64,000 nucleotides of DNA from an uncultured Gammaproteobacteria bacterium (GTDB lineage Bacteria; Pseudomonadota; Gammaproteobacteria; Francisellales; Francisellaceae): NCBI GenBank assembly GCA_913060525.1, contig CAJXRW010000001.1, forward strand, positions 289-64,288, given 5' to 3'. This document shows positions 42,799-58,204 of the stretch, one piece after another (position 1 is the stretch's first letter; each line of letters opens with the position of its first letter). The notes beneath the pieces were generated by a model, which saw nothing but the letters and a program-made list of their open reading frames with translations, ran no database searches and was not told the origin of the DNA. The translations under genes were made by a program, and so were the position numbers.

Positions 42799-45700
42799 TT
42801 AGCGTGACCGGCCTTTATTTTTCTTCGGTGCGCCAGGTGTGTATTTAGGTTTTTTCTCAAGCTCGGCTAAGTAATTTTCAAGGTCTTTATATGCCTGGCT
42901 ATTCTCAATTCTTTGGGCCATTTCTTGGCGAGTTAATTTCGGTTTAACTTCTGCAGCTGGCTGCTCGGCCATACGCTTAGCATAACGGCCATAATCAAGC
43001 TCAACCCTATCTAAGACTTTCATATCTTTAGCAAAAGCTTTCGCTTTAGGATCTTGCATAACGATATAGGCATACTCCTGGCCCTTTTCCATGAATGTCT
43101 TTCTGGTTTCCGCATCGATGCGCCCTATCTCTGTATTTTTAAAGCCAAGTAAAGCGCGGCGTTCTGCACGTAAGTAATTACGCACCTTTTTCAAAGGTGT
43201 ATGATCTAATTGCTTAATTTGGCCAATCTTGGTGATTTGATCCAGACGGTGTTTCCAGTTCTTATCGTACTCAGGAATAGCAACGCCCAAGTCTTTTCGT
43301 AGCCCATCCACCCCTTTCACTTGCAAGATATCATTCCAATCTGTTTTTTGTTTGTTGGCCAACATTTGTGGTGTTTTAATAATGGGTTGCAAACCAGCAT
43401 CCTTTAAGGCTTTGATCGCCTTATTAAAGGCCACCTCAGACTTAGCATTTTTACCATCGTTGTCTTTTAATATGATGAGCTCTTTTGGCTGGTGTGCTTT
43501 CAGTGCTTCAGCTGAATTTGATAAGTTTGATACAGATAATGACGTTAAGACCGTTGATTTTGGATCTGCTAAACCAGCACTTGCGCCTGTTTCACCACCC
43601 TCGGCAACATAGACTCGGCCATTTGTGCCATTCTGGATAACACCCAAATTGCCTTTTAAATGCCCTTTAGTAACTTTAGGGTTATCCATGAAACTGACTT
43701 TATCATAAGTCTTACTGTCCAGGTAAGTACGTTGAATAGCCGTAATATCATGATTTTTATCTTTTATGGCCAAGACCATTGCCGGTAATTTATTGGTGCG
43801 TTCTATACGCTGGCCAGCTTCGTTATAATCCACCCATTTCGTACCCACTGGCCAGTAACGCATCTCCATGTTATCAGCTGTATGGATGTTTCTATTCTCC
43901 CATAAATAACGCTCAGCTACGGTATCAGCAATCGGTTTTGTACCCATCCAAATAGATTGAGCCGCTTCAATCTTATTGCGGATTTCCTGGGCCGCTCTTG
44001 CTTTGCGTTTGTTATCTGCTTCAGGATCAGTTTTAAATACAAATTTGCTCTCAGTTGTTTTTGCTTCAGCTTCACTTAAACCGGCTAAATGTGCGCCTTG
44101 TTCAAGTGCTTCAACATAGGATGAGCCAGGTAGACGATGGCGTATTGCTTCAATAGGATCTCCCCCTTTTTCTTCTGAGAAGCTAAACCACATGCCTTGT
44201 TTAGCGCCCTGCAGTGTCACCACCAGGCCATTTTCCCATCGCATTTCTCTTGAGCTTTGTTTTTTAGGCTCACCAAATATCTGCGGATAGACATGTTCGG
44301 CTTGCTGGATCAATCGATCACGGATTTTGTTATGATCCCATTGCTGGATCTGGCGTTCTTCAACTTGTGGTTGAGTCGTAGCCTGGTTCACTTCAGGTTT
44401 AACCACTTGCTGCATTTGTAGTTGACGTGTTTTGGCCAATGCATTTTCAAATTGTTCCGCATGCTTGACTAGTTTTGAGTGTTGTATAGACTCAAAATTA
44501 AGATACGGCTTATATGTTTCACTTGAAGCCAAAATACTAGCAGCAAGGACATTACGTTGCCTTGATAACGCAAAAGCCTTTTGCTTATCAGCCTGATTCT
44601 GCTTCACGCTTACCCACTCAGCTGCAGCTTGACGACTTAACGCTTGATAATCTTTAACACGTTGATATAAGCCACGTTCATCATCAGATAAACTTAGCTC
44701 AAATACCTCACGGCGATATGCTTGTGCATTCATATAAAAGGATTTGCCATCAATATCTAGGTGTTGTACGCCTTGGTAAATTGCACCTTTAGCATATTGA
44801 TCTTGAATACTAGCGGCCCATTCATTTTTGGTAAATCCGGTTTTCTCCTGGTACTGTTTCAAATCATCAATAACCTCATAAGATTGCGACTGTTTATGAA
44901 TACGTTGCCAATCAAATTTTTCCACTTGATCGCTAACAAAAACATAGTTTGATCTATCTTCAGATAAGTATTGCGACAGATTAAATGCGGCGGCATTACG
45001 CGCCATCGTGTGCTTATACGCCGTGTCTTTTAGTTCTGCAGATACGCTTTGACCTGATTTTTCTTTCATACGAATAGCCGCCCATGCTTGGGCCGCTTCA
45101 CGCGATGTTAAATCATAATCTACAGCAGCATCAAACACACCACGCTTTTCCTCTGGCAATTTGCTTGCCTGCAGCTGATAGCCATAACGCTTACCTTGCA
45201 GCCAAATTTTAGCCGAGTCACATTCATACATCTTAATGTAAAAAGCATGCTTACCGTAACGCTGAATAATTTGATAGGCAGCTGCACCATCTTTTTCACC
45301 ACCATCAGCATACTGTTTCACTCGGTCTTGCGCTTCAAGACGTTCTTCATGCAGGGCAACGTGGCGATTAAAGCGATCCATTTTTAGACCTGGGAATGTT
45401 TCATCGATTTTCTCCGGATTAGCGCGATACCATTGTTCCAATAATGGATAACTGTTATTAACGTCATAGGCTAACTCATGGCGTTCGGCCATCAGCTTAA
45501 ACATATCACTTCTTTGTGACTTAAACTCTTCAGTCATGTGTTCATCGGTCAGCTGTGCCTTATCAGATAAACCATGCTGTTTTCTTAACGCTTTTTCTAA
45601 TGCCTGTACTTCGGCATATTGCTGAGCCGCTTTACGACACACGGATTGATAATCTTGAACCGCATCGAACATTTCAACTTGTCCAGCTGGAAGATTAGCA

Positions 45701-48700
45701 CGGATGTATCGAATTGCTTCGGGTCTGGCTGTCGTGGCCACCCCTCTCCATAACATACCCTCATCACGCGCAATGCCAGCATACCCTTTAAAATCTTGAT
45801 TAAGTTTAAAGGCAATTTGTTCACGTTCTCGCTCTGGTGTATCAGGATGAATGTAAGCACGAATATCTAATCTGCGCTGATATCGCTCTGCTTGTTTTTC
45901 AATATTGGTCACAACTCTTTCATAAGCAGCTGCATACGGATATTGCACAGATAAAACAGTCTGGTAGGCTTCTTTGTCTTGATAGATTTGATAGGCAATT
46001 TCTTCAGACTGTTTGAAGTATTGGTTAGCTATCAACTGATATTTTTGTAAATGCTTTGGTAAATTATCTTTGTTCTGTCCATCTGATTCTTGCCCAAAAT
46101 GCTCAGATTTAGATTTATCTAAATAACGCCAGGCATCTTTGTAATTAGATGTAAACTTCTCTACCACTGCTAGTCGTTGACGATAGCCTTCAATGTGTTG
46201 CTTCTTCGCAAATGTGACATGTTGAGCATTATATACATTGACTGACTTCCACAAATCACGCGATGAAACAAAGCGACTATAATCATTGCTAGAGCTGATT
46301 TCAGTGGCGAGTTGGCGTTTAACATATGGGTTGGTTGCCTGTTCAAATTTTCTGACCGTTGCTTCATGAATGAATGACTCTGCCCACGTTTTTAATTGGT
46401 CAGAGTCGATGCGATTATAGCGCAACGCATGGTCGTAATCATGACCATCTGTATAAAGATGGTATGCGGCTTCATTACGTTGATAAAACGCATCTTCAAT
46501 TGGCTTGTAAGCAACTTTTGCTTCATCATTTTCATACCATTTATCACCGTACTGCTTCTTGAATGCAAGATACTTTTCATTAACTGAGCCATGTAGATCA
46601 GCGAAGTCAGCTACTTTTTTGGCTTGTAAATTAATACGCTGTTGCTCAATTGCTTTGTACTGGAAAGCTGTTTTAGCCTGGTCAGCTTGATACTGCGTGT
46701 AATTAAATAAATAGTTCCAGGTGTCCTTAACCTTGGTGCTAACACCTTTGATTTTTTGGGCAGCATGTTGTGCAAGTAACTCTGGATCTTCGCCACGTCT
46801 AATAGCAAACTGCATCGGATAGTCCAGCACACTGTCACGTAAACTGACGCTGGCCAATCCACGTTTAAGTTGGTGAATATCATTAAATGATTCCTGGTTA
46901 GCATAAATGTGCAAATTGTCACGATGACGCGATAAGGCGACATAGGTTAAGTGACGATCCCAACCATGACCTGACAAGTAGGCAAGCGTATTATTAACGG
47001 TAACGCCTTGTGATTTATGAACGGTTAGCGCATAACCATAATCGAAGTTTGAATATAAGTTACGATCAAAAATAACCTGTTGGCCACCATCCAGTGTCGC
47101 CTTAATGATACCATCTTCGATTTCATTAATAGTTGCTAATTGACCATTTTTAACATTTAATTCACGGCTGTTTTTCAAGAAAACGATACGCTCACCTGGT
47201 GCAAATTCTTTAGTAACTGATTTGCCAGAAATAGTGACTTGGTGTGCAGTTGATTCACCTAAATTAGCATTTTCAGATAAATAATGTCGTGCGTGTTGAT
47301 TCAGTTGATCGACATCTGATTGCTGGTGAGCAAGAATAATGGTCTGTGATAAATCATTCTGATATTGTACCCATTGAGAAAATAGCTGTTTATTAATTTC
47401 ATCTTTACCCGATAGCACAAGACGATTTTTCTGAATATAAAAATCTACTGCATCACCTACCTTACCTTGAGATAAGCCACGTATAACTTTTCGTTCATCC
47501 GCGTTACGTTGGCGGCGAATAACATCAAGCATAGCGAAACCGCAACGCTCTAGTATCGCTCTAAATGGTGAGCCTTTTTCTACTGGTTGTAATTGTTCAG
47601 GATCACCAGCTAAGACAAGTTTATAGTTAAACTGACGTGACATATTCATCAACTGATACATGTCATTTAAACCAATCATACCAGCTTCATCAACTACCAA
47701 TACCGAGCCATGATTAGGTAAATAATTAAGTTTAGATCCACCCTGCTTATACAAGTATAATAGTGTCGCTAAGGTCTTAGATTCGATACCAGCTTCTTGT
47801 TCAAGTCCAGCTGCAGCCTTACCAGAAATAGCCGTACCATAAACCTGATAACCTAACTCACTATATAAGGCATTTACTGATTTCAGTGTGTATGTTTTTC
47901 CTGTACCAGCAAGACCAACTAGCGCAGAAATATTTCCAGAATGAGCAATATGTTGTAGCGCGTCTGCTTGCTCATCTTTCAAGGTATAGCGTTCAGAGAT
48001 AGCCTTAATGTATCTTTTATGAATAACAAAGTCACGTTGGCCATGCATCGATGCGGCAATATCACCGATACTATTTTCTTTCTCGTAGTTTGCTTTAGTG
48101 GTATAGCGAATGCGACCAGATTCTCCATAACCAAGCTGTATAATTTGATTAGAATTAAGTACCGCACGTAACACATCATGATAGTCATTTTCATTTTCTG
48201 AATAAGCGGTTTGTTTAAATACAAGCTTGGTAATATCACGTTCATCAAACACAGCATAGTTGTTTTCTAGCGTTTGAATAATTAAATCAGGTTGATCAAA
48301 TACAGCTTCTGCATTCGCAGTTTTGATCTGCTCATTGTATTCAGACACATCATAAAATTGACTATTTTCTCGTACTCGACCCTCATGAACAGTAGGAATA
48401 ATATTAATTGGATCTACCTTTAAATCAATATTATTATTTTCAAAATAAGCATTCTGAAAGGTTTCCCATTTACGATTTAACTGATCAGGTACAGCAAAGT
48501 TTCCATATGTACTAGCCAGCACTTGTGGAGCCATATTGCGTTCTTTTTTGCGTGAGAATTCTACACCATGAAGCTGGCGCATCGTAATCATAACATGTGC
48601 GTGTGGATTACCATCATCTTTATTATGAATGCAAACATCAGCAGCAACACCAAAAGCATCAACATAGTTTTCCTTTATAAACTGATTAACCAAATCAACT

Positions 48701-49038
48701 TGACTGTTATGGCTTAGTTCTTTTGGTAATGCAATTTTGAGTTCCATTGCAAGCTGTGCGCTGTCACGTCTGTTATGGCTATTTTCGATATGCTCAACAG
48801 CATTCCAAATGGATTCTCTATTATGATATGGATGTGATTCTTTGGTGTATTTATCGTTATAGGCAGTATCTGGCAATAGAATATTTTTATAAACGCAATC
48901 GCCTTTATTTGAGTAATCAAACGTTTCTCCAGTGCGTTCGCAATGAAGTTTTTCATTTGCTCTGTAAGCAGCTGCACTTAGCGCATTGTGACCGCCGCTT
49001 CGCGAAATGAACCGCGCGTTTATATATTGTATTGCCAT
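42799..49038 (-). CDS. traA: multidomain conjugative relaxase: MobA/MobL (MOBQ, TraA-Ti-like) relaxase + RecD-like SF1 helicase + long helical repeat region + Toprim primase domain
   Basis: The ORF is open to a TTG at 49077, but MAIQYINARFISRSGGHNALSAAAYRA (ATG 49038) is the canonical MobA/MobL N-terminus. His triad IHNKDDGNPHAHVMIT. Helicase motifs GLAGTGKTY, VVDEAGMI and TVHKSQGVT. Primase-like WENGLVVTLQGAKQGMWFSFSEEKGGDPI (about 44160-44260). Toprim residues VYVAEGGETG (about 43580) and ILKDNDGKN (about 43450). Basic C-terminus KKNKGRSR. Confidence 0.9.
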   Translation of the reverse strand: MAIQYINARFISRSGGHNALSAAAYRANEKLHCERTGETFDYSNKGDCVYKNILLPDTAYNDKYTKESHPYHNRESIWNAVEHIENSHNRRDSAQLAMELKIALPKELSHNSQVDLVNQFIKENYVDAFGVAADVCIHNKDDGNPHAHVMITMRQLHGVEFSRKKERNMAPQVLASTYGNFAVPDQLNRKWETFQNAYFENNNIDLKVDPINIIPTVHEGRVRENSQFYDVSEYNEQIKTANAEAVFDQPDLIIQTLENNYAVFDERDITKLVFKQTAYSENENDYHDVLRAVLNSNQIIQLGYGESGRIRYTTKANYEKENSIGDIAASMHGQRDFVIHKRYIKAISERYTLKDEQADALQHIAHSGNISALVGLAGTGKTYTLKSVNALYSELGYQVYGTAISGKAAAGLEQEAGIESKTLATLLYLYKQGGSKLNYLPNHGSVLVVDEAGMIGLNDMYQLMNMSRQFNYKLVLAGDPEQLQPVEKGSPFRAILERCGFAMLDVIRRQRNADERKVIRGLSQGKVGDAVDFYIQKNRLVLSGKDEINKQLFSQWVQYQNDLSQTIILAHQQSDVDQLNQHARHYLSENANLGESTAHQVTISGKSVTKEFAPGERIVFLKNSRELNVKNGQLATINEIEDGIIKATLDGGQQVIFDRNLYSNFDYGYALTVHKSQGVTVNNTLAYLSGHGWDRHLTYVALSRHRDNLHIYANQESFNDIHQLKRGLASVSLRDSVLDYPMQFAIRRGEDPELLAQHAAQKIKGVSTKVKDTWNYLFNYTQYQADQAKTAFQYKAIEQQRINLQAKKVADFADLHGSVNEKYLAFKKQYGDKWYENDEAKVAYKPIEDAFYQRNEAAYHLYTDGHDYDHALRYNRIDSDQLKTWAESFIHEATVRKFEQATNPYVKRQLATEISSSNDYSRFVSSRDLWKSVNVYNAQHVTFAKKQHIEGYRQRLAVVEKFTSNYKDAWRYLDKSKSEHFGQESDGQNKDNLPKHLQKYQLIANQYFKQSEEIAYQIYQDKEAYQTVLSVQYPYAAAYERVVTNIEKQAERYQRRLDIRAYIHPDTPEREREQIAFKLNQDFKGYAGIARDEGMLWRGVATTARPEAIRYIRANLPAGQVEMFDAVQDYQSVCRKAAQQYAEVQALEKALRKQHGLSDKAQLTDEHMTEEFKSQRSDMFKLMAERHELAYDVNNSYPLLEQWYRANPEKIDETFPGLKMDRFNRHVALHEERLEAQDRVKQYADGGEKDGAAAYQIIQRYGKHAFYIKMYECDSAKIWLQGKRYGYQLQASKLPEEKRGVFDAAVDYDLTSREAAQAWAAIRMKEKSGQSVSAELKDTAYKHTMARNAAAFNLSQYLSEDRSNYVFVSDQVEKFDWQRIHKQSQSYEVIDDLKQYQEKTGFTKNEWAASIQDQYAKGAIYQGVQHLDIDGKSFYMNAQAYRREVFELSLSDDERGLYQRVKDYQALSRQAAAEWVSVKQNQADKQKAFALSRQRNVLAASILASSETYKPYLNFESIQHSKLVKHAEQFENALAKTRQLQMQQVVKPEVNQATTQPQVEERQIQQWDHNKIRDRLIQQAEHVYPQIFGEPKKQSSREMRWENGLVVTLQGAKQGMWFSFSEEKGGDPIEAIRHRLPGSSYVEALEQGAHLAGLSEAEAKTTESKFVFKTDPEADNKRKARAAQEIRNKIEAAQSIWMGTKPIADTVAERYLWENRNIHTADNMEMRYWPVGTKWVDYNEAGQRIERTNKLPAMVLAIKDKNHDITAIQRTYLDSKTYDKVSFMDNPKVTKGHLKGNLGVIQNGTNGRVYVAEGGETGASAGLADPKSTVLTSLSVSNLSNSAEALKAHQPKELIILKDNDGKNAKSEVAFNKAIKALKDAGLQPIIKTPQMLANKQKTDWNDILQVKGVDGLRKDLGVAIPEYDKNWKHRLDQITKIGQIKQLDHTPLKKVRNYLRAERRALLGFKNTEIGRIDAETRKTFMEKGQEYAYIVMQDPKAKAFAKDMKVLDRVELDYGRYAKRMAEQPAAEVKPKLTRQEMAQRIENSQAYKDLENYLAELEKKPKYTPGAPKKNKGRSR

Positions 49039-49077
49039 AACGATATTAATTATAAGCAATAGCTTTGACGTAGTCAA

Positions 49078-49189
49078 TGCATATTGCGCCTTTAGAAAAG
49101 GCGCTTGATTATTTTACTTCGATAATAGTAGATCGTAATATATGCATATGCTATAATATATCTAGGTTTTACTATTTGTTTAAAATGCT
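49078..49189. promoter_or_regulatory. candidate oriT / divergent promoter region
   Basis: Perfect inverted repeat GCGCCTTT-AGA-AAAGGCGC at 49086-49104. The + strand context CATATTGCGCCTTT resembles the MOBQ nick-region core (..TGCGCCCT) of RSF1010/Ti-type oriTs as I recall it. Lies between the relaxase gene and the accessory genes. Confidence 0.4.
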
Positions 49190-49738
49190 ATGGATAGTTT
49201 GGAAAAATTAAAGAAATTAGAATTTCGCCTTTTTCAACTTAACAATCGCATCAAGTCTACTAAGCAAAATCATCGTTTTAATGATACAAAAATTAAACGA
49301 TCATTTGGTAAGGTGTTCATTATTGCTGGTGCTGGTAACTATTTAGATATTGAAAATATGCTTGACCATGAAGTTATTCAACTGGGCGCATTAGTGGTTG
49401 CAACTAAATGTCATGAAATGAGAATGGCTGCTGTATTAGGCGCGCTTTTTTTGGCCTGTTCAAATTGCAAAGAAAAGGAATATTTCAACGAATGTGAAAA
49501 ATTAGGGTCTGAATTTCATGAAGGTAATAAAAAATTATCTTATCCATTTACTATTTTAATGGGTATCAGTATACAAGCTAGAAAATTATTAGACTCGATT
49601 GGTCAGTTTGAACGATTAACAACTTTAGGCGATCAGCTTTTTACTGATCATAAATTGAAAAAAATGCGTAGATATCAAATGTATTTGTCCAAAAAAAATG
49701 ATAAATTATCCTTGAGTGATTTAACTAAAAACACATAA
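49190..49738 (+). CDS. relaxosome accessory protein, TraD(Ti)-like N-terminus
   Basis: 182 aa. NDTKIKRSFGKVFIIAGAGNYL....VIQLGALVVA resembles the Ti-plasmid TraD pattern (..TREKIELGGLIVKAGL....LLLGALIDA) from memory. Divergent from the relaxase gene across the putative oriT. Confidence 0.35.
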   Translation: MDSLEKLKKLEFRLFQLNNRIKSTKQNHRFNDTKIKRSFGKVFIIAGAGNYLDIENMLDHEVIQLGALVVATKCHEMRMAAVLGALFLACSNCKEKEYFNECEKLGSEFHEGNKKLSYPFTILMGISIQARKLLDSIGQFERLTTLGDQLFTDHKLKKMRRYQMYLSKKNDKLSLSDLTKNT

Positions 49739-49747
49739 GGATAAAAC

Positions 49748-50026
49748 ATGTCTGATACAAAAAAACTCCAACAGCTTTTAGAGCAAAAGAATAAACTTGA
49801 AGAGCAAATCAAAGAAGCCACACAAAAAAGACTTAATGACGTTGCGACAATATTAGAAAAACATGGCTTACATCGATGGGCCAATAATGCACTTAATAAT
49901 TTATTCAAGCATGCGGCTAACCAGGGAGAAAATGAATATAAAAAAGCACCATCTAAAAAACCAGTAGAACAAAATACACAACAATCTATCGATAACCAGC
50001 AAGTTGATTACCAACAAAATGGTTAG
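49748..50026 (+). CDS. relaxosome accessory protein, TraC(Ti)-like coiled-coil protein
   Basis: 92 aa. KKLQQLLEQKNKLEEQIKEATQKRLNDVATILEKHGL resembles the Ti TraC pattern (..IARLQEQLKQAE..RIGRIALKAGL) from memory. Confidence 0.35.
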   Translation: MSDTKKLQQLLEQKNKLEEQIKEATQKRLNDVATILEKHGLHRWANNALNNLFKHAANQGENEYKKAPSKKPVEQNTQQSIDNQQVDYQQNG

Positions 50027-50050
50027 TCGTAAATTATAGGAGTAGCGCAA

Positions 50051-50674
50051 ATGAGCACCGACACAATTGAAGCAAATCCGAATCATGTTTCTGATTATGA
50101 TATTCAAGCACTAAAAGATAAACTAACCAATCTACAACGTGCGAAAGAACATCAGAAATTAACCAGTGAAATAAATGATATTGTTTACAAACAAAATATT
50201 CATGCTGGAAACTCTACCATGAATGTTGGTGATACTGACCAGATTCTTGCTTCTAATTATAATGAAAATAGAGGATTTGTCACCAGGGCATTTGATCGTT
50301 TTATTGCGATGCTCTCCCCTGCTCCCATGAGTGGATATATTATCTCATTAGTAATAATCCTATCTGTATATAGTGCCTTTCATTCTCATCTATTTAATTC
50401 TATAGGTGGTCATGATATTTCAAAATACATGCCATATTTTGGATATACTGCATTAATATCGGCAGCGATAATTGTTTTTAGATCGAGCGCGAGAGGTTTG
50501 TTTTTAGCTATGCTGACATTCCTATTTGGATTAATCGGTGCGCTCTCTACAGAATCGGGCCAAACATTTTTAAGCTTTGAACATGTTGTCTTTCAAATCG
50601 CATTAGCTATAGGCGGATTAAGTCTACTAAGAGGGGCATTGAATATAGATGCGCCAAGAAATAACGCCCAATAA
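50051..50674 (+). CDS. hypothetical membrane protein
   Basis: 207 aa. Soluble coiled N-terminal half and 3-4 TM helices in the C-terminal half. Confidence 0.5.
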   Translation: MSTDTIEANPNHVSDYDIQALKDKLTNLQRAKEHQKLTSEINDIVYKQNIHAGNSTMNVGDTDQILASNYNENRGFVTRAFDRFIAMLSPAPMSGYIISLVIILSVYSAFHSHLFNSIGGHDISKYMPYFGYTALISAAIIVFRSSARGLFLAMLTFLFGLIGALSTESGQTFLSFEHVVFQIALAIGGLSLLRGALNIDAPRNNAQ

Positions 50675-50870
50675 TATATGATTATCTTTCCCGGTATCTA
50701 GTGGATTTTTAGCTGCGCTAAACCGCAGAATAAAATCGGGATAGTTTTAATTTAGTTACTTAGTTAACTGATATATTTAAATGTAATTTCATTAAAAGTA
50801 TCACGATTTTATTTCCGCTAATCCCACATACTCATTAGAATTTAGCATCAAAGATGCAATAACAAGCTGC

Positions 50871-50900
50871 GCCACTTCCCTTATTTTATTTGGGAGTGGC
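50871..50900. terminator. GC-rich hairpin between convergent genes (possible bidirectional terminator)
   Basis: GCCACTTCCC-TTATTTTATT-TGGGAGTGGC forms a stem with one bulge, followed on the + strand by TTCGCGTTTTT. Lies 19 nt beyond the stop of the minus-strand gene 50919-51410. Confidence 0.35.
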
Positions 50901-50918
50901 TTCGCGTTTTTATAGCTT

Positions 50919-51410
50919 TTAGAAAAATGAAAATGCGTATAATATTTGCGATTTTAATAGATGAATAAATATTCCGACTACTAAGATTATAGCAAACGGA
51001 ATAACCAGCCTTATATCGAAAACATAAGGTGAGTATTCTCTTGATTTTTTAATTGTTTGTAAAAAGATTGAGATCAAACCACCAACTCCAATGCCAAAAA
51101 TAATCGATTCAAATATTCCAAATTTTAACATGCTCCATGCATTCTCAAGCAATTTTACATTTTCTTTTTCTTCGTCAGTTGGAAAATAAATATATTTAAT
51201 TTTTAGATCGAAATTGTATATGTAAACCGATCTATCATATGTAAACAAAGCAAAAATTAATATAATTGATATGATACTAAATAATACAATTTTTACATTA
51301 GATATCGCCTTCTCCTCTCTATGATGTTCTCTATTAAGAGAGATTTTAACAGCTGAATACATGCAGTACCCTGCTACTAATAAAATGATTAAATATGCCA
51401 ATAAAATCAT
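50919..51410 (-). CDS. hypothetical polytopic membrane protein
   Basis: 163 aa with 4 hydrophobic helices. No family recognised. Confidence 0.5.
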   Translation of the reverse strand: MILLAYLIILLVAGYCMYSAVKISLNREHHREEKAISNVKIVLFSIISIILIFALFTYDRSVYIYNFDLKIKYIYFPTDEEKENVKLLENAWSMLKFGIFESIIFGIGVGGLISIFLQTIKKSREYSPYVFDIRLVIPFAIILVVGIFIHLLKSQILYAFSFF

Positions 51411-51553
51411 GCCACTTCTCCATGTGTTGTTAATTTTTTTGTTATAATTTTTACGTCATCTTAGCTTAAATAAAAACTTCATATAACCGCTACAAAAAAT
51501 ATTTTAACTTTTTTAAATGAGCCGCATAAGCCGCTAAAACAAATTATTTTTTA

Positions 51554-52099
51554 TTAATAGCGTATGTTGTTTTTATTATAGCTTTGCATTGGTAACTGAA
51601 TTTTGAAAGCATCTATCTTGTTCTCTTTTAAAAATCTAATCGCATGATCTATTGAATTGAAATTGATTGAAAGGCCGTATGTTTTCTCAACATCATCACT
51701 GTATTCACCTTCATATGTTTTTAAAAAAATGTTTGTATGCAAAATATCAATTCTAAAACGCTTTTTATTAATGATAGATTTGAACTCATCAATATTAATA
51801 CTAATTATTCCTGTGTTGTCGATAGGCTTGAAAATAACATTAGGCTCTAAACCTAAAAATAAACTGATCTCAGCAATACTATTTAGTGTTAAATTGGCAC
51901 TTCCATTCAGAATAGAACTCAATTTATTAGGTGATATCCCCATTTCACGGCATGTCTCATTAAACCCTAGTTTGTTCATCTCCATGTGCTTTTGTAAATG
52001 ACAAGCAATGCGATTTTGCATTGACCTAACATATTCATTTATTTGTCCTGCATGGCCCTCTGAGCCAAATTCATTAGTCTTTATTTTCTTATCAGACAT
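51554..52099 (-). CDS. XRE-family HTH transcriptional regulator (candidate repressor of the repeated cassettes)
   Basis: 181 aa. HTH LGFNETCREMGISPNKLSSILNGSANLTLNSIAEISLFLGLEP. Downstream of, and co-oriented with, the first cassette-driven gene. Confidence 0.7.
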   Translation of the reverse strand: MSDKKIKTNEFGSEGHAGQINEYVRSMQNRIACHLQKHMEMNKLGFNETCREMGISPNKLSSILNGSANLTLNSIAEISLFLGLEPNVIFKPIDNTGIISINIDEFKSIINKKRFRIDILHTNIFLKTYEGEYSDDVEKTYGLSINFNSIDHAIRFLKENKIDAFKIQLPMQSYNKNNIRY

Positions 52100-52178
52100 G
52101 TTAGAAACTCCAATATTTTAATTTAATTTTATTCACACCTTTTAAAGAAACACTGACACCATGAATTACAACATGAGT

Positions 52179-52604
52179 TTATTCTGGCGTATATTCATAC
52201 GGCCGATCCCATCGGCCAATATTAATATCGACATAATAAGCAACGTTATAATAATCTGTCATAGGGTCACTCTCATTATAATAATCCACGCTAAATAATA
52301 TCTGTCTGGCCAGCATTAAAAATGCCTTACACTTGCCAGTAAAATCTTCTTCGATTGTATTTTTACACACATCAATATAACCGTTCTTAACTAGATTATG
52401 CTGTCTGCATTCTTCCCTATGCTTATTTTGCTCTGCTAAAGATTTATTATAGTCATTAATAAAATCAAGCTGGCCAGACCGCACATTCAAAACAATTGTT
52501 GTATGCTGGCGAATCGCTAACGTACACTTAACACCATATTTTTGTGAAAGTGCTTTGATTTTTGGGGCAATGATTTTTTTATCTTCTTGAGTAAAGCTTG
52601 GCAT
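52179..52604 (-). CDS. hypothetical protein (leading-region type), driven by cassette 1
   Basis: 141 aa. The ORF starts 7 nt after the cassette SD (AACGGAG). No confident family call. Confidence 0.55.
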   Translation of the reverse strand: MPSFTQEDKKIIAPKIKALSQKYGVKCTLAIRQHTTIVLNVRSGQLDFINDYNKSLAEQNKHREECRQHNLVKNGYIDVCKNTIEEDFTGKCKAFLMLARQILFSVDYYNESDPMTDYYNVAYYVDINIGRWDRPYEYTPE

Positions 52605-52715
52605 ATTTCGATCTCCGTTTAAGGTTTAAACAACAGGTCGGCCATTCCGTTCCTGTTACCTATATTTTAACATATCTAAGTAACTACTACAATATATTGT
52701 AGTAGTATTTTAGCG
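52605..52715 (-). promoter_or_regulatory. repeated promoter/operator/5'-UTR cassette, copy 1
   Basis: Read on the minus strand: 24-bp palindrome ACTACTACAATATATTGTAGTAGT (52683-52706) containing a -35 TTGTAG, a 17-nt spacer, a -10 TAAAAT, hairpin ACAGG-AACGGAATGGCCGA-CCTGT (52633-52656), SD AACGGAG, then ATG. Confidence 0.75.
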
Positions 52716-53024
52716 CTATTTTTTGCCTTTAAAAGTGCCGTTCAATGATAATGTTTTGGCGTGATGCTCAAATAAACCCGAATATATTTCATCACTGTTT
52801 TTGATGTTTCTAACGATAATTAACTTAAACTCTTTTAACGTGCTCTCTTTGGTGCATGCAAAATCAGCCAGGTCAAAATAAACCTTTTTGGCCTGTAGTC
52901 CAGCAACCTTTCTGACAACCCTTTCAAAAAGAGAAATTAACTCGCGTTTCTCTTTACTGGTACAATTAACGCTATCAATTTTATCAATGGTTAACTTTTC
53001 GTATTGTTTACTCATTACAACCAC
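52716..53024 (-). CDS. hypothetical protein
   Basis: 102 aa, second gene of the cassette-2 transcription unit (3-nt gap after the upstream gene). Confidence 0.5.
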   Translation of the reverse strand: MVVMSKQYEKLTIDKIDSVNCTSKEKRELISLFERVVRKVAGLQAKKVYFDLADFACTKESTLKEFKLIIVRNIKNSDEIYSGLFEHHAKTLSLNGTFKGKK

Positions 53025-53027
53025 CTA

Positions 53028-53285
53028 TCAAGCTATTTTTTTGATTTCAGAAAATGAGGATGCTGGCCAGTAGCCTGGGTAAACTTCCAATAAATCAAAG
53101 GCGTTATACTGATGTTTAAAGCCCTCTCTTAATCTATTCATTGCTGACATAGGGTCACAAAAAGTTAATGTCACTTTAGAGCCTTTAAGCTCAACCTTAC
53201 TAACACATAGCAGCGGTTCAAACTCGCCAACAGTGATAGCATCGCCTGGCTTAATTGATGAAACTTTTATTATCTTGAAAGACAT
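53028..53285 (-). CDS. hypothetical small protein, driven by cassette 2
   Basis: 85 aa. Starts 7 nt after the cassette SD. Confidence 0.5.
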   Translation of the reverse strand: MSFKIIKVSSIKPGDAITVGEFEPLLCVSKVELKGSKVTLTFCDPMSAMNRLREGFKHQYNAFDLLEVYPGYWPASSFSEIKKIA

Positions 53286-53412
53286 ATTCTGATCTCCGTT
53301 TAAGGTTAAAAAAATACAGGTCGGACTATTCCGTTCCTGTAATAATATTTTAGCATAAATAGCTAAACACTACAATATATTGTAGTGGTAAATGTTATCT
53401 TTATAGGGTACA
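53286..53412 (-). promoter_or_regulatory. repeated promoter/operator/5'-UTR cassette, copy 2
   Basis: Palindrome CACTACAATATATTGTAGTG (53368-53387), -35 TTGTAG, 17-nt spacer, -10 TAAAAT, hairpin ACAGG..CCTGT (53316-53340), SD AACGGAG. Confidence 0.75.
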
Positions 53413-54258
53413 TTAGACTTTTATTTTCTCTAGTGCTTCAAGCGCGCACCGTGTAGAGAATTTTGCATTTCCTGTTAGCTTGCGAACCCAAGCTTCGCTA
53501 TAGCGTGAAAATTTAAAAGCGTGACTGCTGAGTATTTTTCTTGCTTCTTCCGATGGGATTTCATCAAAAATAAATTTGATTCTCATTTCTTCACCATCAA
53601 AAACCACTTTAAAACCATCTTTTTGAATCTCTGAATCTTCTTGTTTTGCATTTGCTAACGACTCTAAACGCTTTTCTAATCTTCTTATTTCAACCGTACT
53701 AGGCGCATAAGGCTTTAGTCTGCCGTATGGCGCAAAAGCATAAAAGCCAGCGCGTTGGATTAATTCTTTTGCAGCATCCTCATGAGTCTCGCTTAAAGCC
53801 TTTGCTGCCTGTTTAAAAGCTTCTTTTTCATCTTGTAGCTTCTTGAAAGCCTGGGTATAGTGTTTTTTATATAATCTATTTACTTCTTTCATATGCTCAT
53901 TGTTAGCTTTTAAACTATCAATTTTAGTTTGAATCTTCTGGGCTGCTTCTGGGTCAAAAGATGATATGCCACCTGTGCCAACTGCTGCCGCTTTGCGCTC
54001 GTAATGGTCGGCTTTATCATCTAATTTAAAAGACTTCTCAAATGTGTTACTAACTTTTTTTAAATGGCTTCTGTGGCGGCTTTCTGAATGATGACCTACT
54101 AGAATCGGCTGGCCGAATGGAATAACACCCGATAATTTTCTTGCTTCACTGTAAGTCGCTTGCGATTCTTTTCTAACTGCTTTGGCTTTTTCTGCTAGAC
54201 GTTCTTTCTTAGCTGCGATACGTGCTTCATATTCATTCATATTTTGATCTCCGTTCAA
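53413..54258 (-). CDS. DUF3560-like protein, driven by cassette 3
   Basis: 281 aa. Coiled N-terminus followed by IPFGQPILVGHHSESRHRSHLKK, the signature I associate with DUF3560, a family common on conjugative plasmids. Confidence 0.55.
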   Translation of the reverse strand: MNGDQNMNEYEARIAAKKERLAEKAKAVRKESQATYSEARKLSGVIPFGQPILVGHHSESRHRSHLKKVSNTFEKSFKLDDKADHYERKAAAVGTGGISSFDPEAAQKIQTKIDSLKANNEHMKEVNRLYKKHYTQAFKKLQDEKEAFKQAAKALSETHEDAAKELIQRAGFYAFAPYGRLKPYAPSTVEIRRLEKRLESLANAKQEDSEIQKDGFKVVFDGEEMRIKFIFDEIPSEEARKILSSHAFKFSRYSEAWVRKLTGNAKFSTRCALEALEKIKV

Positions 54259-54365
54259 GGTTAAAGTAACAGGTCGGCCATTCCGTTCCTGTAATATTAT
54301 TATAACAAAATTAGCACATCACTACAATATATTGTAGTGTTAAATGTTATCTTTTTATAGTAACA
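54259..54365 (-). promoter_or_regulatory. repeated promoter/operator/5'-UTR cassette, copy 3
   Basis: Palindrome CACTACAATATATTGTAGTG (54320-54339), -35 TTGTAG, 17-nt spacer, -10 TATAAT, hairpin ACAGG..CCTGT (54269-54292), SD AACGGAG. Confidence 0.75.
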
Positions 54366-54695
54366 CTATATAGCTTGCTTTTTCTTTGTTGCGATCATCA
54401 TATTTTTAATAATTGTGTTATATAAATCACCGCCTTTAATTTGATTAATCAGATGCTTTTCAGGTTGGTTATACAGATCATGTAAATATGATACTTCTAT
54501 ATTATCCAGGTTATTTCTTTTCAGGTCATAACACACGGTATAACAGCTATACTTACTTTCTATAAGTATAACACCTTGATAGTTTGGATGATGACATTCA
54601 AAAGTTATCGCACTTTTATCATTAGTTAAATAAAGCATGAAATGCTTATTTTTATTGATCTGGCAGCATAATTCGAATAAGTTTATTTTATTCAT
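54366..54695 (-). CDS. hypothetical protein
   Basis: 109 aa, second gene of the cassette-4 unit. Confidence 0.5.
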   Translation of the reverse strand: MNKINLFELCCQINKNKHFMLYLTNDKSAITFECHHPNYQGVILIESKYSCYTVCYDLKRNNLDNIEVSYLHDLYNQPEKHLINQIKGGDLYNTIIKNMMIATKKKQAI

Positions 54696-54706
54696 TTCGA
54701 TAGCCC

Positions 54707-54925
54707 TTACTTATGATCAGGATTATTTAATTCTCTTATATCATTTATGAGCCTATTTACTCGCTTGTGCAATTGTTTGTATTTCCTAATTGTGTTTTTA
54801 CTCATACTCTGGATTTCTGCTTTCTCAATCGCGTTCTTCAGATCAGAATAAACAAACATAGAACCTTGTTCAGCCTTGATTAAATCCACTGATAAATTAC
54901 TGGCCTGGTTTGCATTCATAGACAT
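54707..54925 (-). CDS. hypothetical small protein, driven by cassette 4
   Basis: 72 aa, helical, with a basic C-terminal half (KYKQLHKRVNRLIN). Confidence 0.5.
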   Translation of the reverse strand: MSMNANQASNLSVDLIKAEQGSMFVYSDLKNAIEKAEIQSMSKNTIRKYKQLHKRVNRLINDIRELNNPDHK

Positions 54926-55050
54926 AATAAATAACTCCGTTTTAGGTTGAAAAACAAGTCGGATAATTCCGTTCTTGTTGATAAGTATTATAACAAAATT
55001 AGCGCAACACTACAATATATTGTAGTGTTATATGTTATCTTTTTAGGATA
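54926..55050 (-). promoter_or_regulatory. repeated promoter/operator/5'-UTR cassette, copy 4
   Basis: Palindrome CACTACAATATATTGTAGTG (55008-55027), -35 TTGTAG, 17-nt spacer, -10 TATAAT. The hairpin stem is changed to ACAAG..CTTGT (54954-54978), which is a compensatory pair change. SD AAACGGAG. Confidence 0.75.
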
Positions 55051-55146
55051 ACTTTTAACTATATTTCATTGCTTTTATGATGTTATCTTTATATAATAAC
55101 ATCAGCTAAGATATTTAGCTGTTAACCTACAACGGAGCTTTAGAAT

Positions 55147-56319
55147 ATGTCACGAGTCGATACAAATATCAAAATTATTAGGTTCATTCAATCCAATGTT
55201 AATTTAAAAGAATATTCTGGTTTTGGTGGATTACACAAAATCATGACTAAAGATCAACACCAGGAGCTAAAGAACATTTTAGGCCCTGATGTATATAAAA
55301 ATGTAATGGCCAGCTGTAAGACTGCCTATTACACACATAAAGATATTATCAGTTTTATTTATCAGTCTTTAGTAAAAATGGGTTTTACTGGTGGCAAGCT
55401 ACTAGAGCCAGCCTGCGGACACGGTGCTTTTATCTTTAATATGCCAAGCAACTTAATCGAAAACTGTATTATCCACGCAGTTGAATTGGATAGATTAAGC
55501 GCAAGAATTACAAAAGCAATTTGCCCTTATGCTAAAATACTAAATCACGGTTTTGAAGCCACTAAATTTAAAGCTAATACTTTTGATGCAATAGTCGGTA
55601 ATCCCCCATATGGTAGCCAGACATTAATTGATAGCCAATTTTCAGATATAAACGGTATGGCCCTGCATCATTTTTTCACGGCTAAAAGTGTGCATCTTTT
55701 GAAAGATAAAGGTGTTATGGCGTTCGTATTACCTCAATACTGCTTTGATAATCTACATGATCACCCTCGTCATATTATGGCGCAGCATGGCTCATTAATT
55801 GCTGCTTTTAGATTACCAGACAACATGTTTGATAATGCAAAAGTAACAATCGATATTGTTTTTTATACCAAACAAAAACTTAACAATATTGCATTTACAG
55901 AAGTTAAAAACATTCAAGTTAAAGGCCATAAATTAAGAATGAATGAATATTACGTTAATCATCCTGAAAACATCCTGGGGGAGCTTGATACTTGCAATAT
56001 GTACGGCCAACGTATCGGCTTAACTGTAAAATCAAGTGATGATAAAGAAACCATTTTTAAGCAGCTGTCACAAAAAATTGATGGTCTGCCTGTATGTATC
56101 GACAACAAGAAAAATACAACTGATTTTGATGTGTTCGCAAGCATTGACCAGGCGTTAGAAAAGCTTAAACAAAAACAAGCAACGCAAAATGAATTACAAG
56201 CCAAACTAACCGATTTTGAAATCGAAAAAATTATTTTCTTAAAACAGGCCCTACTTGAACAAGAAAAAAGCTTTAGAGAGCTACAAAATCAAATCAAAAC
56301 AACCATTAATCAAATTTAA
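55147..56319 (+). CDS. orphan N6-adenine DNA methyltransferase (gamma-type, Eco57I/TaqI-like N6_Mtase)
   Basis: 390 aa. Motif I LLEPACGHGAFIF precedes motif IV IVGNPPYG. Coiled-coil C-terminus. No adjacent restriction endonuclease recognised. Confidence 0.8.
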   Translation: MSRVDTNIKIIRFIQSNVNLKEYSGFGGLHKIMTKDQHQELKNILGPDVYKNVMASCKTAYYTHKDIISFIYQSLVKMGFTGGKLLEPACGHGAFIFNMPSNLIENCIIHAVELDRLSARITKAICPYAKILNHGFEATKFKANTFDAIVGNPPYGSQTLIDSQFSDINGMALHHFFTAKSVHLLKDKGVMAFVLPQYCFDNLHDHPRHIMAQHGSLIAAFRLPDNMFDNAKVTIDIVFYTKQKLNNIAFTEVKNIQVKGHKLRMNEYYVNHPENILGELDTCNMYGQRIGLTVKSSDDKETIFKQLSQKIDGLPVCIDNKKNTTDFDVFASIDQALEKLKQKQATQNELQAKLTDFEIEKIIFLKQALLEQEKSFRELQNQIKTTINQI

Positions 56320-56334
56320 TTAGGAGATGGAAAC

Positions 56335-57243
56335 ATGTTAAGCAAAATTATATTTAATCGACCTGCTCTAAACAATCGCCCTGGCAATGCATCCAGGAGA
56401 GCAATTCGGCTCAAAAATGATAACAATAAAACCATTCAAGTCGGTGATTTACACTTGGATTACAACCGCGCTAAAGATAATAAAAATCTATTTGATAAAT
56501 TATCTGCAGATGGAATTATTCAGTGCCGTGAGTTCTTCAATGTTTATAATCAAACTCGCAGATGCATGCCAAGTGCCAGCAATGCCACTTTCAACGCGCA
56601 AACGATTTACTGGGATGAAAATTTCGCCCATCTTCTTTACGAGGTGGCTGAACTGGCCCAATGCAATGGGATTGATTTTTTACCCAAAGAGGTCATGTTT
56701 GAGTCTTTACTTTCCAAGCTTCAGCAACTTGAAAAGAAATTAGACTTGAGCGAGATATACAAAAAATATGATTTTAATTCCACATATAAAAGGCCGCTCT
56801 TACCCATCAGCTTTGACCAAAAAAAGGCCCTGCTGCAGTCATTTTTGGCGCTCGATGAGGATAAAGATCATTTGATAATGTTATTTAATGATCATATTCA
56901 TGATCAATTTAACATGGGTAAAACCTTTACATATAACATGCTGGAAGAAATCATACGCCAAGGAAGCGATTCAAGTGAATACAGGGGGTTAAAATCGTAT
57001 GTTTTAAGTGCTTGTATTGATGTTATGGATAGCTACGGTGTAAACGCTTGTGAAGAACATTCTCCAGGTATGATTTTTTACTACTGGTACAATGTTCGAC
57101 TTGAGAAGTTTAATGGCCATCAAGCTGTTAAGCGCTTTGTTGCCGAATTTGAGCCAGCCGAGGAATATATGGATCAAGTCTATTTGGCTCTAACAGACAT
57201 TATTAGTAAGCCTATACTGCCAAATCACGTTTTTTTGAAATAG
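56335..57243 (+). CDS. hypothetical protein
   Basis: 302 aa. The long ORF starts 15 nt after the methyltransferase stop, with RBS AGGAGA upstream. No family recognised. Confidence 0.5.
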   Translation: MLSKIIFNRPALNNRPGNASRRAIRLKNDNNKTIQVGDLHLDYNRAKDNKNLFDKLSADGIIQCREFFNVYNQTRRCMPSASNATFNAQTIYWDENFAHLLYEVAELAQCNGIDFLPKEVMFESLLSKLQQLEKKLDLSEIYKKYDFNSTYKRPLLPISFDQKKALLQSFLALDEDKDHLIMLFNDHIHDQFNMGKTFTYNMLEEIIRQGSDSSEYRGLKSYVLSACIDVMDSYGVNACEEHSPGMIFYYWYNVRLEKFNGHQAVKRFVAEFEPAEEYMDQVYLALTDIISKPILPNHVFLK

Positions 57244-57351
57244 AGCCAATGCAACATAAAACCCTGATTGGTTAATACTTAATCTATTGTACATTTTATT
57301 AATTTTAGTCTATAAATAAAGTAGCTTAACTAAAAATCTCAAGGTAATTAA

Positions 57352-57645
57352 ATGTCTGATTCTCTTTCTAAAACTGACTTGGTTAATTGTTTAGTTGAAA
57401 ACTGCAAAGCTTATAGCTCCAAAACAGATGCTAAAAAAGCAATTGATGCGGTGCTTGGCTGTATAGAGAAAAACTTATCGGAAGGTAAAGACATTAATAT
57501 CATTGGTTTTGGGAAATGGGAGCTTAGAAATAGAAAATCAAGACAGGGCCGGAATCCCCAAACTGGACAAGTGGTACAAATAGCAGCATCAAAGACTATT
57601 GGGTTCAAACCGTCATCTAACATCAAGAAACTAATTAATAGCTAA
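57352..57645 (+). CDS. hup: HU/IHF-family nucleoid-associated DNA-binding protein
   Basis: 97 aa. LSKTDLVNCLVE..., IIGFGKWELRNRKSRQGRNPQTGQVVQIAASKTIGFKPS matches the HU beta-arm motif (GFG.F....R..R.GRNP.TG..I.I). Confidence 0.9.
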   Translation: MSDSLSKTDLVNCLVENCKAYSSKTDAKKAIDAVLGCIEKNLSEGKDINIIGFGKWELRNRKSRQGRNPQTGQVVQIAASKTIGFKPSSNIKKLINS

Positions 57646-57718
57646 TCTGATTTTCACAAAAAAACACTACCTATATCTATATCGAATCCCAAATAAACTA
57701 GCTTTTCATTGTCATTAT

Positions 57719-58204
57719 TTGTTCAGACAGTGTAAACAAAGTGCTAACATACTGGCCAAGGTAATGCAAACATTCTGCAAACAATGTACTGTGCTGTTAA
57801 ATACATCCGAGACGGTAAGCTCACCCAAAGTTTTTTTTACAAATCAAAAATCTCAACTACCGATCAAGTTACGAAATGGCATGGTTTATATGCCCTGGGG
57901 AAGATATAAAGGTGAGCCTGGTGGTTTGCCTTTATGCCCTATCATCCCTAAGTACATTATCAATAAAGGTTTATATGATGGGTATTTTCCAAAGCCTGTG
58001 AAAGTGCTTGTGGCTGAATATGGAATAATGGTTAATCGTAGATATGATTGGGTGACCCTGTTTCATCAATCTTGCTTAATGGGTCTTGTTCTGAAAGATG
58101 AATATCTCGATTATAGGGCCTATTTAGTTGGTGAGCGCTACAACTACCGCAATGCATCCATGTTAATGCCAATAAGCTTTTATGATATAAATGCTGCAGA
58201 TTAA
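57719..58204 (+). CDS. hypothetical protein
   Basis: 161 aa from a TTG, or 146 aa from the ATG at 57764. N-terminal CKQC pair. No family recognised. Confidence 0.4.
   Translation: MFRQCKQSANILAKVMQTFCKQCTVLLNTSETVSSPKVFFTNQKSQLPIKLRNGMVYMPWGRYKGEPGGLPLCPIIPKYIINKGLYDGYFPKPVKVLVAEYGIMVNRRYDWVTLFHQSCLMGLVLKDEYLDYRAYLVGERYNYRNASMLMPISFYDINAAD

Follow-up and report, generated by a model that had tools for sequence, protein, structure and literature searches.

The DNA between positions 49190 and 57645 of the window analyzed here, a stretch of 64,000 nucleotides corresponding to bases 289-64288 of contig C1 (65,548 bp), carries 14 genes next to a candidate origin of transfer (oriT). A preliminary description had taken this block for the leading, that is first-transferred, region of a conjugative plasmid, lying across oriT from the relaxase gene and comprising about 15 small genes, nine consecutive ones of them on the minus strand (50919-54925). 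Its placement held, the estimate of gene number was fair and all open reading frames (ORFs) of the earlier list were recovered at their coordinates, but the minus-strand genes number eight. C1 is the largest contig of an assembly of 2.65 Mb in 448 contigs (36% G+C) and encodes a VirB4/VirD4-type transfer system. Since its ends overlap by 40 nt and a 394-amino-acid (aa) ORF closes across the junction upon circularization (C1 65323-999), it is most likely a circular plasmid of ~65.5 kb. We compared it with four related elements, namely a contig of the same assembly (C3; coordinates on L010), an ENA metagenome contig (L017), a TARA scaffold (L026) and the Francisella novicida plasmid pFNPA10.

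Relaxase, oriT and predicted transfer polarity

The relaxase gene occupies 42799..49038 on the minus strand; its ORF spans 42799-49077, the likely true start being the ATG at 49038 (MAIQYINARF...). The product is a TraA_Ti-type relaxase-helicase of the MOBQ class, which passed NCBIfam model TIGR02768 (TraA_Ti; 686.9 bits versus a cut-off of 590.45) and contains, in this order, Pfam MobA_MobL (E = 3.7e-41), a superfamily 1 helicase (AAA_30) and a C-terminal, primase-like DUF7146-Toprim module (DUF7146, Toprim_3). Counted from ATG 49038, the catalytic tyrosine is residue 25, the position it also has in MobA of R1162 (PMC6856555). The oriT core (49065..49104, plus strand) consists of the inverted repeat TTGAC-gta-GTCAA (49065-49077), followed by TGCATATTGCG/CC. 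This plus-strand layout of repeat and nick site (TTGACgtaGTCAA, then TGCATATTGCG/CC) is that of RSF1010, whose substrate, cleaved in vitro, reads GTTTCTCgaaGAGAAAC (GTTTCTC-gaa-GAGAAAC), then CGGTAAGTGCG/CCCTCCC (PMC4814116), with a hairpin-to-nick spacing of 11 nt in both cases. The predicted nick falls between 49088 and 49089 of the plus strand. In pFNPA10 the core is nearly unchanged, in L026 it reads GCTTTGACGGAGTCAATGCAAGTTGCG/CCTTTAG, and in C3 it is CGTTGAT-gca-ATCAACG, then TATAAGTGCG/CA, the 8 bases before the nick being those of RSF1010; all three elements have kept it although the relaxases share only 30-40% identity. A second inverted repeat, GCGCCTTT-aga-AAAGGCGC, lies at 49086-49104 with the predicted nick inside its left arm, and the relaxase promoter TTGACT-17-TATAAT (49077-49049, minus strand; 11 of 12 consensus matches) overlaps the oriT hairpin.

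After cleavage of RSF1010, the DNA 3' of the site remains bound to the relaxase (PMC4814116). The nicked-strand oligonucleotide of an IncQ1 plasmid reads toward mobC, with mobB and the repB primase gene encoded by the opposite strand behind the hairpin, as judged from a gene table that is incomplete and lacks mobA itself. The window shows the same arrangement, with the relaxase-primase gene behind the hairpin and a MobC/TraD-like gene ahead of it. Because of this RSF1010-type core and IncQ gene layout, the plus strand would be nicked at 49088/49089 and DNA from 49089 upward should enter the recipient first, so that homology supports the preliminary proposal of a block entering first from a plus-strand nick near 49.09 kb. 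Next to oriT, positions 49190..50674 (plus strand) encode a putative DNA-transfer accessory operon of a 182-aa TraD_Ti/MobC-like protein (49190-49738; weak Pfam TraD match, 23.9 bits), a 92-aa protein (49748-50026) and a 207-aa membrane protein (50051-50674), homologs of which adjoin oriT in L017, L026 and pFNPA10.

C1, C3, L017 and L026 share a common gene order, consisting of relaxase, oriT, a TraD-like gene with at least one small gene, a minus-strand set, an adenine methyltransferase, its 298-302-aa partner and HU. The minus-strand set varies in size (8 genes in C1, at least 9 in C3, 2 in L017 and 3 in L026), and in all four the distance from oriT to the methyltransferase-302-HU set, always on the same side, is 2-8 kb. 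We consider it probable, if by no means certain, that the interval is the leading segment of a ~65.5-kb conjugative plasmid and holds an establishment regulon under repressor-controlled zygotic induction; its assignment as a leading region is, as a prediction from sequence, well supported.

Shared promoters, leaders and a candidate repressor

The preliminary description had called the minus-strand genes cassette-driven, and four ~125-nt repeats combining promoter, operator and leader bear this out. All on the minus strand, cassettes 1 (54926-55050), 2 (54241-54362), 3 (53286-53410) and 4 (52605-52727) precede the units encoding 72 and 109 aa, 281 aa, 85 and 102 aa, and 141 (plus 181) aa, respectively; cassette 1 forms the leftward half of a divergent control region (54926..55146). 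A perfect 18-nt palindrome, ACTACAATATATTGTAGT, has four exact occurrences in the 64 kb, compared with 0.03 expected, and all of them lie in the cassettes. Its right half contributes the -35 hexamer TTGTAG, which is separated by a 17-nt spacer from an extended -10 element, TGnTATAAT or, as in cassette 4, TGnTAAAAT. The stem-loop ACAGGAACGGAATGGCCGACCTGT would lie at the 5' end of the transcript, and the ribosome-binding box AACCTTAAACGGAG is placed 8-9 nt before the ATG; cassette 4 displays the full set, from the palindrome over the -35 to the box.

This box is restricted to five genes, those heading the four cassette units and the methyltransferase gene. The control region of the latter (55051-55146, plus strand) carries TATAAT inside an inverted repeat (GATGTTAT...ATAACATC), a 5' stem-loop and the ribosome-binding site AACCTACAACGGAG. 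Its stem differs from the cassette stem. In ten copies from four plasmids, pairing in the leader hairpin reaches 97.5%; three pairs covary, one U.G pair in the mRNA sense among them; hairpin and box are found in four copies in C3 and in one copy each in L017 and L026, and a scan of GTDB genomes for the hairpin returned one chance match, in Streptomyces. The methyltransferase leaders of C1 (window 55051-55146), C3 (L010 13100-13205), L017 (8715-8823) and L026 (8705-8812) have a consensus TATAAT, a covarying stem-loop (CAGCTAA/TTAGCTG versus GTTAAG/CTTAAC) and the box AACCTAYAACGGAG, the last as in the cassettes. That the cassettes and the methyltransferase leader form a five-unit regulon with shared cis elements is strongly supported. 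An integron-like array was rejected because each repeat has its own promoter and ribosome-binding site and no attC-type R'/R'' boxes were seen; as for an integron integrase, the nearby tyrosine recombinase is Xer-like and scores far under the integron-integrase cut-off.

Between the convergent operons lies a structured non-coding element of 217 nt (50689..50905, plus strand), in which C1 and C3 are more alike (81-85% nucleotide identity; L010 9138-9353) than in the surrounding coding DNA (71-74%). Its fold comprises an imperfect hairpin of ~140 nt, the tip of which is variable, and two short hairpins, with two compensatory pairs and with G.T pairs that favor the plus-strand fold. The element marks the oriT-proximal edge of the module common to C1 and C3 and was not found in L017, L026, pFNPA10 or the rest of the assembly. 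Possible functions are those of a terminator or 3' untranslated region, or of a priming (single-strand initiation, ssi) site; a type I toxin was rejected, as a conserved small ORF is absent.

Such structures raise the possibility that the eight minus-strand genes are transcribed straight from the transferred strand (T-strand) by hairpin promoters of the Frpo/ssi type, before second-strand synthesis and as in F and IncI1. These genes do use the predicted T-strand as template, each cassette contains two hairpin-forming sequences, the plus strand folds far below shuffled controls (z -4.2 to -5.4), and the conserved ~140-nt imperfect hairpin at 50729-50813 folds better on the plus strand. Frpo, however, is a long imperfect hairpin that keeps both -35 and -10 in duplex (PMC11541004), whereas in the cassettes the palindrome and the leader hairpin form separate short stems, the -10 is unpaired and no duplex mimic of a -35/-10 promoter arises. 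Being downstream of all eight genes, the long hairpin cannot drive them; the U.G covariation in the mRNA sense fits an RNA leader and not a DNA structure of the T-strand, and the methyltransferase gene is on the wrong strand. Because the cassettes fold unlike Frpo, use of the T-strand as template gives no demonstrated early expression, contrary to what the preliminary description had expected of T-strand promoters, and we regard hairpin-driven transcription as improbable. In the favored reading, the leading-region regulon would instead be driven by ordinary duplex promoters, kept silent in established cells by a plasmid repressor.

The best candidate for a repressor acting at the palindromes is the 181-aa XRE-family helix-turn-helix (HTH) protein (51554..52099, minus strand), which gave weak Pfam HTH_26/HTH_19 and PHROG regulator matches and is 34% identical to the HigA-like HTH protein in the equivalent position of C3. 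Of the elements compared, only C1 and C3 have the palindrome, and in no others does an XRE-type gene lie at the distal end of the last cassette operon; this co-occurrence is a correlation. A second repeat, GTTATC-N7-GATAAC, is found at 54346-54364, 55034-55052 and 55082-55100 (imperfect in two copies), upstream of palindromes and across the methyltransferase -10, and may be a second operator. A single csrA gene is present in the host, and the leader contains two ACGGA motifs ~30 nt apart.

A shared operator would also suit a plasmid-wide housekeeping circuit of the KorA/KorB or ArdK type, with cassettes and palindromes setting steady-state levels of maintenance genes and playing no role in entry. 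The same operator does lie over several promoters, the second motif is placed upstream, and a Xer-like recombinase gene is found near the block, in addition to the HU/IHF gene. Yet the operator is confined to the block and absent elsewhere in the 64-kb window, including the type IV secretion system (T4SS) and replication genes, and the regulated genes belong to leading-region families, not to partition or replication. Nor would a circuit of this kind conflict with zygotic induction, since such circuits behave in this way on entry. We thus consider a pure housekeeping function quite unlikely and retain repressor-controlled zygotic induction of a leading region as the working interpretation.

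Products of the regulon

The methyltransferase gene (55147..56319, plus strand) encodes a gamma-class (NPPY) N6-adenine DNA methyltransferase of 390 aa (Eco57I/N6_Mtase), with motif I (LEPACGHG) followed by motif IV (IVGNPPYG), that is, ExxxGxG before NPPY, and Pfam N6_Mtase/Eco57I matches at E = 2e-12 and 2.5e-11. Its sole solved relative is M.TaqI (PDB chains, E = 4e-5). Residues 20-340 align with the N-terminal methylase domain of large methylase-SNF2/DEAD helicase proteins from Campylobacter, Xylella, Pseudomonas, Agrobacterium and Rhizobium plasmids, and the enzyme is a stand-alone methylase of the DarB/polyvalent-protein type. Iyer et al. described the DarB-like module as central to 'polyvalent proteins' and linked it to counter-restriction (PMC5512222). 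The leading-region single-strand methylase M.EcoGIX is of the beta class with a DPPY motif (PMC7736820), and the gamma-class NPPY enzyme does not belong to its family.

Directly behind it, after a gap of 16 nt, follows the gene of a 302-aa protein (56335..57243, plus strand) from a very rare family, of which we found five clusters among 5.8 billion proteins in addition to a 30%-identical copy on pFNE_1. A methyltransferase homolog precedes the 302-aa homolog in all five elements in which this family was found, so that the label of an orphan methyltransferase with no nearby endonuclease, as given in the preliminary description, is not established. The AlphaFold2 model of the 302-aa protein reached moderate confidence (predicted local distance difference test (pLDDT) score 72.5) and is mostly helical with a three-stranded N-terminal sheet; a Foldseek comparison with the PDB returned nothing below E = 0.7, and the PDB sequence search yielded noise. 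The protein matched no nuclease family, and no PD-(D/E)xK, HNH or GIY-YIG motif appears among the residues invariant in seven homologs, the model being of moderate confidence only. The block ends with an HU/IHF-family DNA-bending protein of 97 aa (57352..57645, plus strand; Pfam Bac_DNA_binding, E = 1.5e-25), for which IHF-alpha is the best NCBIfam model. Its gene is also present in C3, L017, L026 and pFNPA10 and is thus a conserved backbone gene.

The tight order of a methylase gene and then a gene without assigned function, together with the joint presence of the pair in all five elements, would also fit a plasmid restriction-modification or addiction-type pair, in which case the block would be a general accessory or maintenance region whose proximity to oriT is irrelevant to entry. 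The partner has diverged more rapidly than the methylase (30% versus 53% identity to pFNE_1), PADLOC labels the methylase a generic Type II methyltransferase, and the pFNE_1 pair does not lie beside a relaxase gene. On the other side, the partner has neither a nuclease family match nor a nuclease motif, and its mostly helical model with the three-stranded N-terminal sheet matches nothing in the PDB. Moreover, the nearest relatives of the methylase are methylase-helicase fusions of conjugative plasmids and not restriction-modification enzymes, and the pair has a fixed place beside oriT in four plasmids. A restriction-modification or addiction pair therefore appears unlikely to us, and we continue to treat methyltransferase and partner as part of the putative establishment regulon.

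One link to known leading regions comes from the DUF3560 (PF12083; YdbA-family) protein, annotated as 281 aa and as 275 aa when read from ATG 54240 (53413..54240, minus strand). Its Pfam match (E = 1.6e-31; 109.4 bits versus a cut-off of 27.2) is accompanied by two conserved loops, IPFGQPILVGHHSE and GTGGISS, which are invariant columns in a 38-sequence alignment. Homologs spanning the full length of the protein are common, and among 1771 homologs several are fused to ArdcN; such fusions occur in PromA-type plasmids, and the best named homologs stem from a Thiotrichales bacterium and Cysteiniphilum. A tblastn search hit at least 5000 plasmid records, mainly conjugative Klebsiella and Escherichia plasmids, and on an IncF plasmid the gene is ydbA, adjoining ydcA, ssb and psiA. 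DUF3560 is family 28 of the leading-region-enriched families of Samuel and Burstein (PMC11541004). The AlphaFold2 model built from the 38 sequences (pLDDT 90.6) has long hairpins of helices and, at the C-terminus, a small alpha/beta domain; the PDB contains no fold match for the model and no profile match to the sequences, and BFVD returned only uncharacterized DUF3560 phage proteins. The fusions to the single-stranded DNA (ssDNA)-binding N-terminal domain of ArdC suggest a DNA-directed role. Pfam thus identified the DUF3560 protein, the NPPY methyltransferase and the HU homolog, all three named in the preliminary description, and its expectation of a leading-region gene content agrees with published work, in which both DUF3560/YdbA and adenine methyltransferases figure among the families of such regions (PMC11541004).

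Most of the remaining minus-strand genes encode small proteins. The 141-, 102-, 85-, 281- and 109-aa genes have 65-85% identical homologs in the same order on C3, a collinearity that marks them as real genes. The 141-aa protein (52179..52604; phrog_10415; 73% identical to its C3 copy) gave only three close clusters in a word-based search and has remote homologs in plasmid establishment regions of Bordetella and Burkholderia. One of these lies ~6 kb from traI on a Bordetella pseudohinzii MOBP plasmid, where its neighbors are a DUF3560 gene, two methyltransferases, an SOS-response-associated peptidase, a large ParB and kleA. The 85-aa (53028-53285; 85% identical to the C3 copy) and 102-aa (52716-53024; 66%; real start probably M4) orphans form a two-gene unit (52716..53285), as do the 72-aa basic protein (54707-54925) and the 109-aa orphan with a C3 homolog (54366-54695; unit 54366..54925). 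A 163-aa membrane protein (50919..51410) completes the set. No homolog was found for the 72-, 163- and 207-aa genes. An exhaustive HMMER search of the 85-aa protein against 1.84 billion cluster representatives recovered only its C3 copy and spurious repeat matches, the 102-aa protein had no match in family libraries, its sole search, and permissive Pfam scans of five orphans and their C3 homologs revealed no family common to both members of a pair.

The preliminary description had further proposed these small proteins as candidates for new anti-defence or establishment functions. Searches of Pfam, NCBIfam, PHROGs and PADLOC gave no match to ArdA, ArdB/KlcA, ArdC, PsiB, Ocr-like or Acr families, none of the proteins has the acidic composition of a DNA mimic (isoelectric points 6.1-9.6), and no known anti-defence fold was matched, with structure models and fold comparison covering the 281-aa (DUF3560) and 302-aa proteins. 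An anti-defence role of the orphans is therefore a guess from their position.

Module exchange, proposed mode of establishment and known systems

The block from the 141-aa to the 302-aa gene is 65-85% identical at the protein and 71-74% at the DNA level between C1 and C3, whereas the relaxases are 30-36% identical and the TraD/TraC-like proteins share no detectable similarity. Such a similar block on divergent backbones indicates that it moved between them as a module. In a 49-kb version of C3, found in another sample, TrfA-type replication and ParA genes are present. Behind cassette 1, C1 has the 72-aa gene (54707-54925) and C3 an unrelated 149-aa gene (L010 12547-12996), the rest being syntenic. 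As the swap falls exactly at the conserved leader, it suggests that the leader may serve as a recombination handle. C1 and C3 differ only in the first gene of the first unit; in L017 and L026, the genes that follow this hairpin and box are quite unlike those of C1 and C3.

Several observations concern the wider plasmids. A Fic-domain gene is found beside the relaxase or HU gene in three members of the family (window 41827-42513; pFNPA10, L009 18041-18943; L017 12266-12952). In C3, a TraF-type signal peptidase gene lies between the HTH antitoxin gene and the TraC/TraD-like genes. The 394-aa junction ORF of C1 contains a short tandem peptide repeat and is followed by a DnaB-like helicase gene; together they are probably the replication region. 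Positions 49000-58000 had no match in a PLSDB near-identity DNA search, and neither an Rfam family nor a tRNA was detected in 49190-57645.

We propose that the relaxase would nick the plus strand at ~49088/49089, just 3' of the small hairpin, and pilot it 5' to 3' into the recipient, with 49.09 to 57.6 kb arriving first. The five transcription units, four on the minus strand and the methyltransferase-302 operon, would constitute the establishment regulon, their extended -10, 5'-terminal stem-loop and identical ribosome-binding box being shared and the four minus-strand promoters adding the palindromic operator over the -35. With the 181-aa XRE protein as the best candidate repressor, expression would burst as soon as the second strand has been synthesized in a recipient that lacks the repressor, a synthesis that the primase domain of the relaxase may hasten; for R1162, the relaxase-borne primase has been argued to aid complementary-strand synthesis on entry. 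The methyltransferase would then methylate the new duplex ahead of host restriction, and the DUF3560 protein would act on the incoming DNA.

A number of findings weigh against this interpretation. The transfer polarity is argued from homology. The preliminary description had nine minus-strand genes using the presumed T-strand as template, which is true of eight, including the DUF3560 gene; the other six (182, 92 and 207 aa, methyltransferase, 302 aa and HU) could not be transcribed from the predicted T-strand, and in published leading regions anti-defence and methyltransferase genes all have the opposite orientation (PMC11541004, PMC7736820). The XRE matches lie below Pfam cut-offs, and the C3 equivalent of the XRE gene (L010 9365-10015) is the antitoxin of a Gp49/HigB-like toxin. 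The -35 TTGTAG matches the consensus at three of six positions, and the sites are absent from the promoter scan output. ArdA and ArdC-N domains were not found in the assembly, nor was an SSB domain on either plasmid contig; the interval gave no PsiB, KlcA or ParB-nuclease Pfam match, the search for these three being confined to the interval. Finally, pFNPA10 has TraD-like genes and then HU without the module, which is therefore dispensable for the backbone.

A bolder extension would join these elements into a previously unrecognized counter-defence and establishment kit, made up of the methyltransferase-302 pair and the 72-, 85-, 102-, 109- and 141-aa proteins. The kit would be a ~6.5-kb module mobile between unrelated backbones, with units swappable at the conserved leader; a leader-targeted post-transcriptional regulator, plasmid-borne or CsrA, would time the burst, and the 217-nt element would be a single-strand initiation site for the relaxase-borne primase. 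This combination is speculative and unlikely.

Leading regions have been studied nearly exclusively in the F, I, N, W and P plasmids of enterobacteria, and the present MOBQ/Ti-type plasmid family, which stems from uncultured marine Thiotrichales and has relatives in Francisella, represents an unstudied lineage. It appears to reuse early-entry families (YdbA/DUF3560, DarB-type methylase) and to drive them differently, by duplex promoters, a shared operator and leader and a relaxase-fused primase. If confirmed, 'first in, first expressed' would be achievable without Frpo. The module is compact, has known boundaries and is kept on two backbones, and its half a dozen orphans and the methylase partner can be tested for counter-restriction.

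Among Francisella plasmids, pFNPA10 resembles C1 in its oriT core, TraD-like gene, HU and Fic genes and a relaxase of 32% identity over 92%, but has neither any part of the cassette module nor the methylase pair; in pFNE_1 (F. novicida), the methyltransferase-302 pair is present without an adjoining relaxase gene. A Rickettsiales (Megaira) plasmid with TraA_Ti/TraD_Ti encodes TraD next to a related methylase, and HU is close by. The F-like and IncI1 leading regions (F, R1, ColIb-P9, pESBL; PMC11541004, PMC7736820) likewise lie directly 3' of the nick and contain YdbA/DUF3560, an adenine methyltransferase, many small genes without assigned function and repeated promoter elements. In contrast to these, the block described here has no ssb, psiB, ardA/klcA or hok/sok, uses putative duplex promoters with a palindromic operator in place of Frpo hairpins, encodes a gamma NPPY methyltransferase in reversed orientation where M.EcoGIX is beta DPPY, and belongs to a MOBQ and not a MOBF or MOBP relaxase.

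RSF1010/R1162 (IncQ1) shares the hairpin-then-nick core (TAAGTGCG/CC in C3, ATATTGCG/CC in the window), a relaxase-primase fusion with the tyrosine at residue 25, and a MobC-like gene reading away from the nick. IncQ plasmids, however, have no establishment block behind mobC, and here the primase is Toprim/DUF7146 in place of RepB' and the plasmid is self-transmissible through a VirB-type T4SS. The methylase domain of the plasmid-borne SNF2 ATPase-adenine methylase polyvalent proteins, which are related to DarB of phage P1, aligns with residues 20-340 of the window enzyme; polyvalent proteins have been proposed, and DarB shown, to shield incoming DNA from restriction (PMC5512222). The window enzyme, whose activity is predicted only, differs in having an unrelated 302-aa partner in place of a helicase domain.

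In regulatory terms, the block is closest to repressor-controlled establishment regions. The ArdK/StbA regulon of R388/pKM101 and the KorA/KorB regulon of IncP plasmids follow the same operator logic. In the establishment genes of pLS20, too, one operator at several promoters leads to a burst in the repressor-free transconjugant (PMC8708921). Compared with all of these, the block described here has an unrelated operator and candidate repressor, lacks ardC, ssb and kfrA, and adds a conserved 5' leader hairpin and ribosome-binding box to its promoters.

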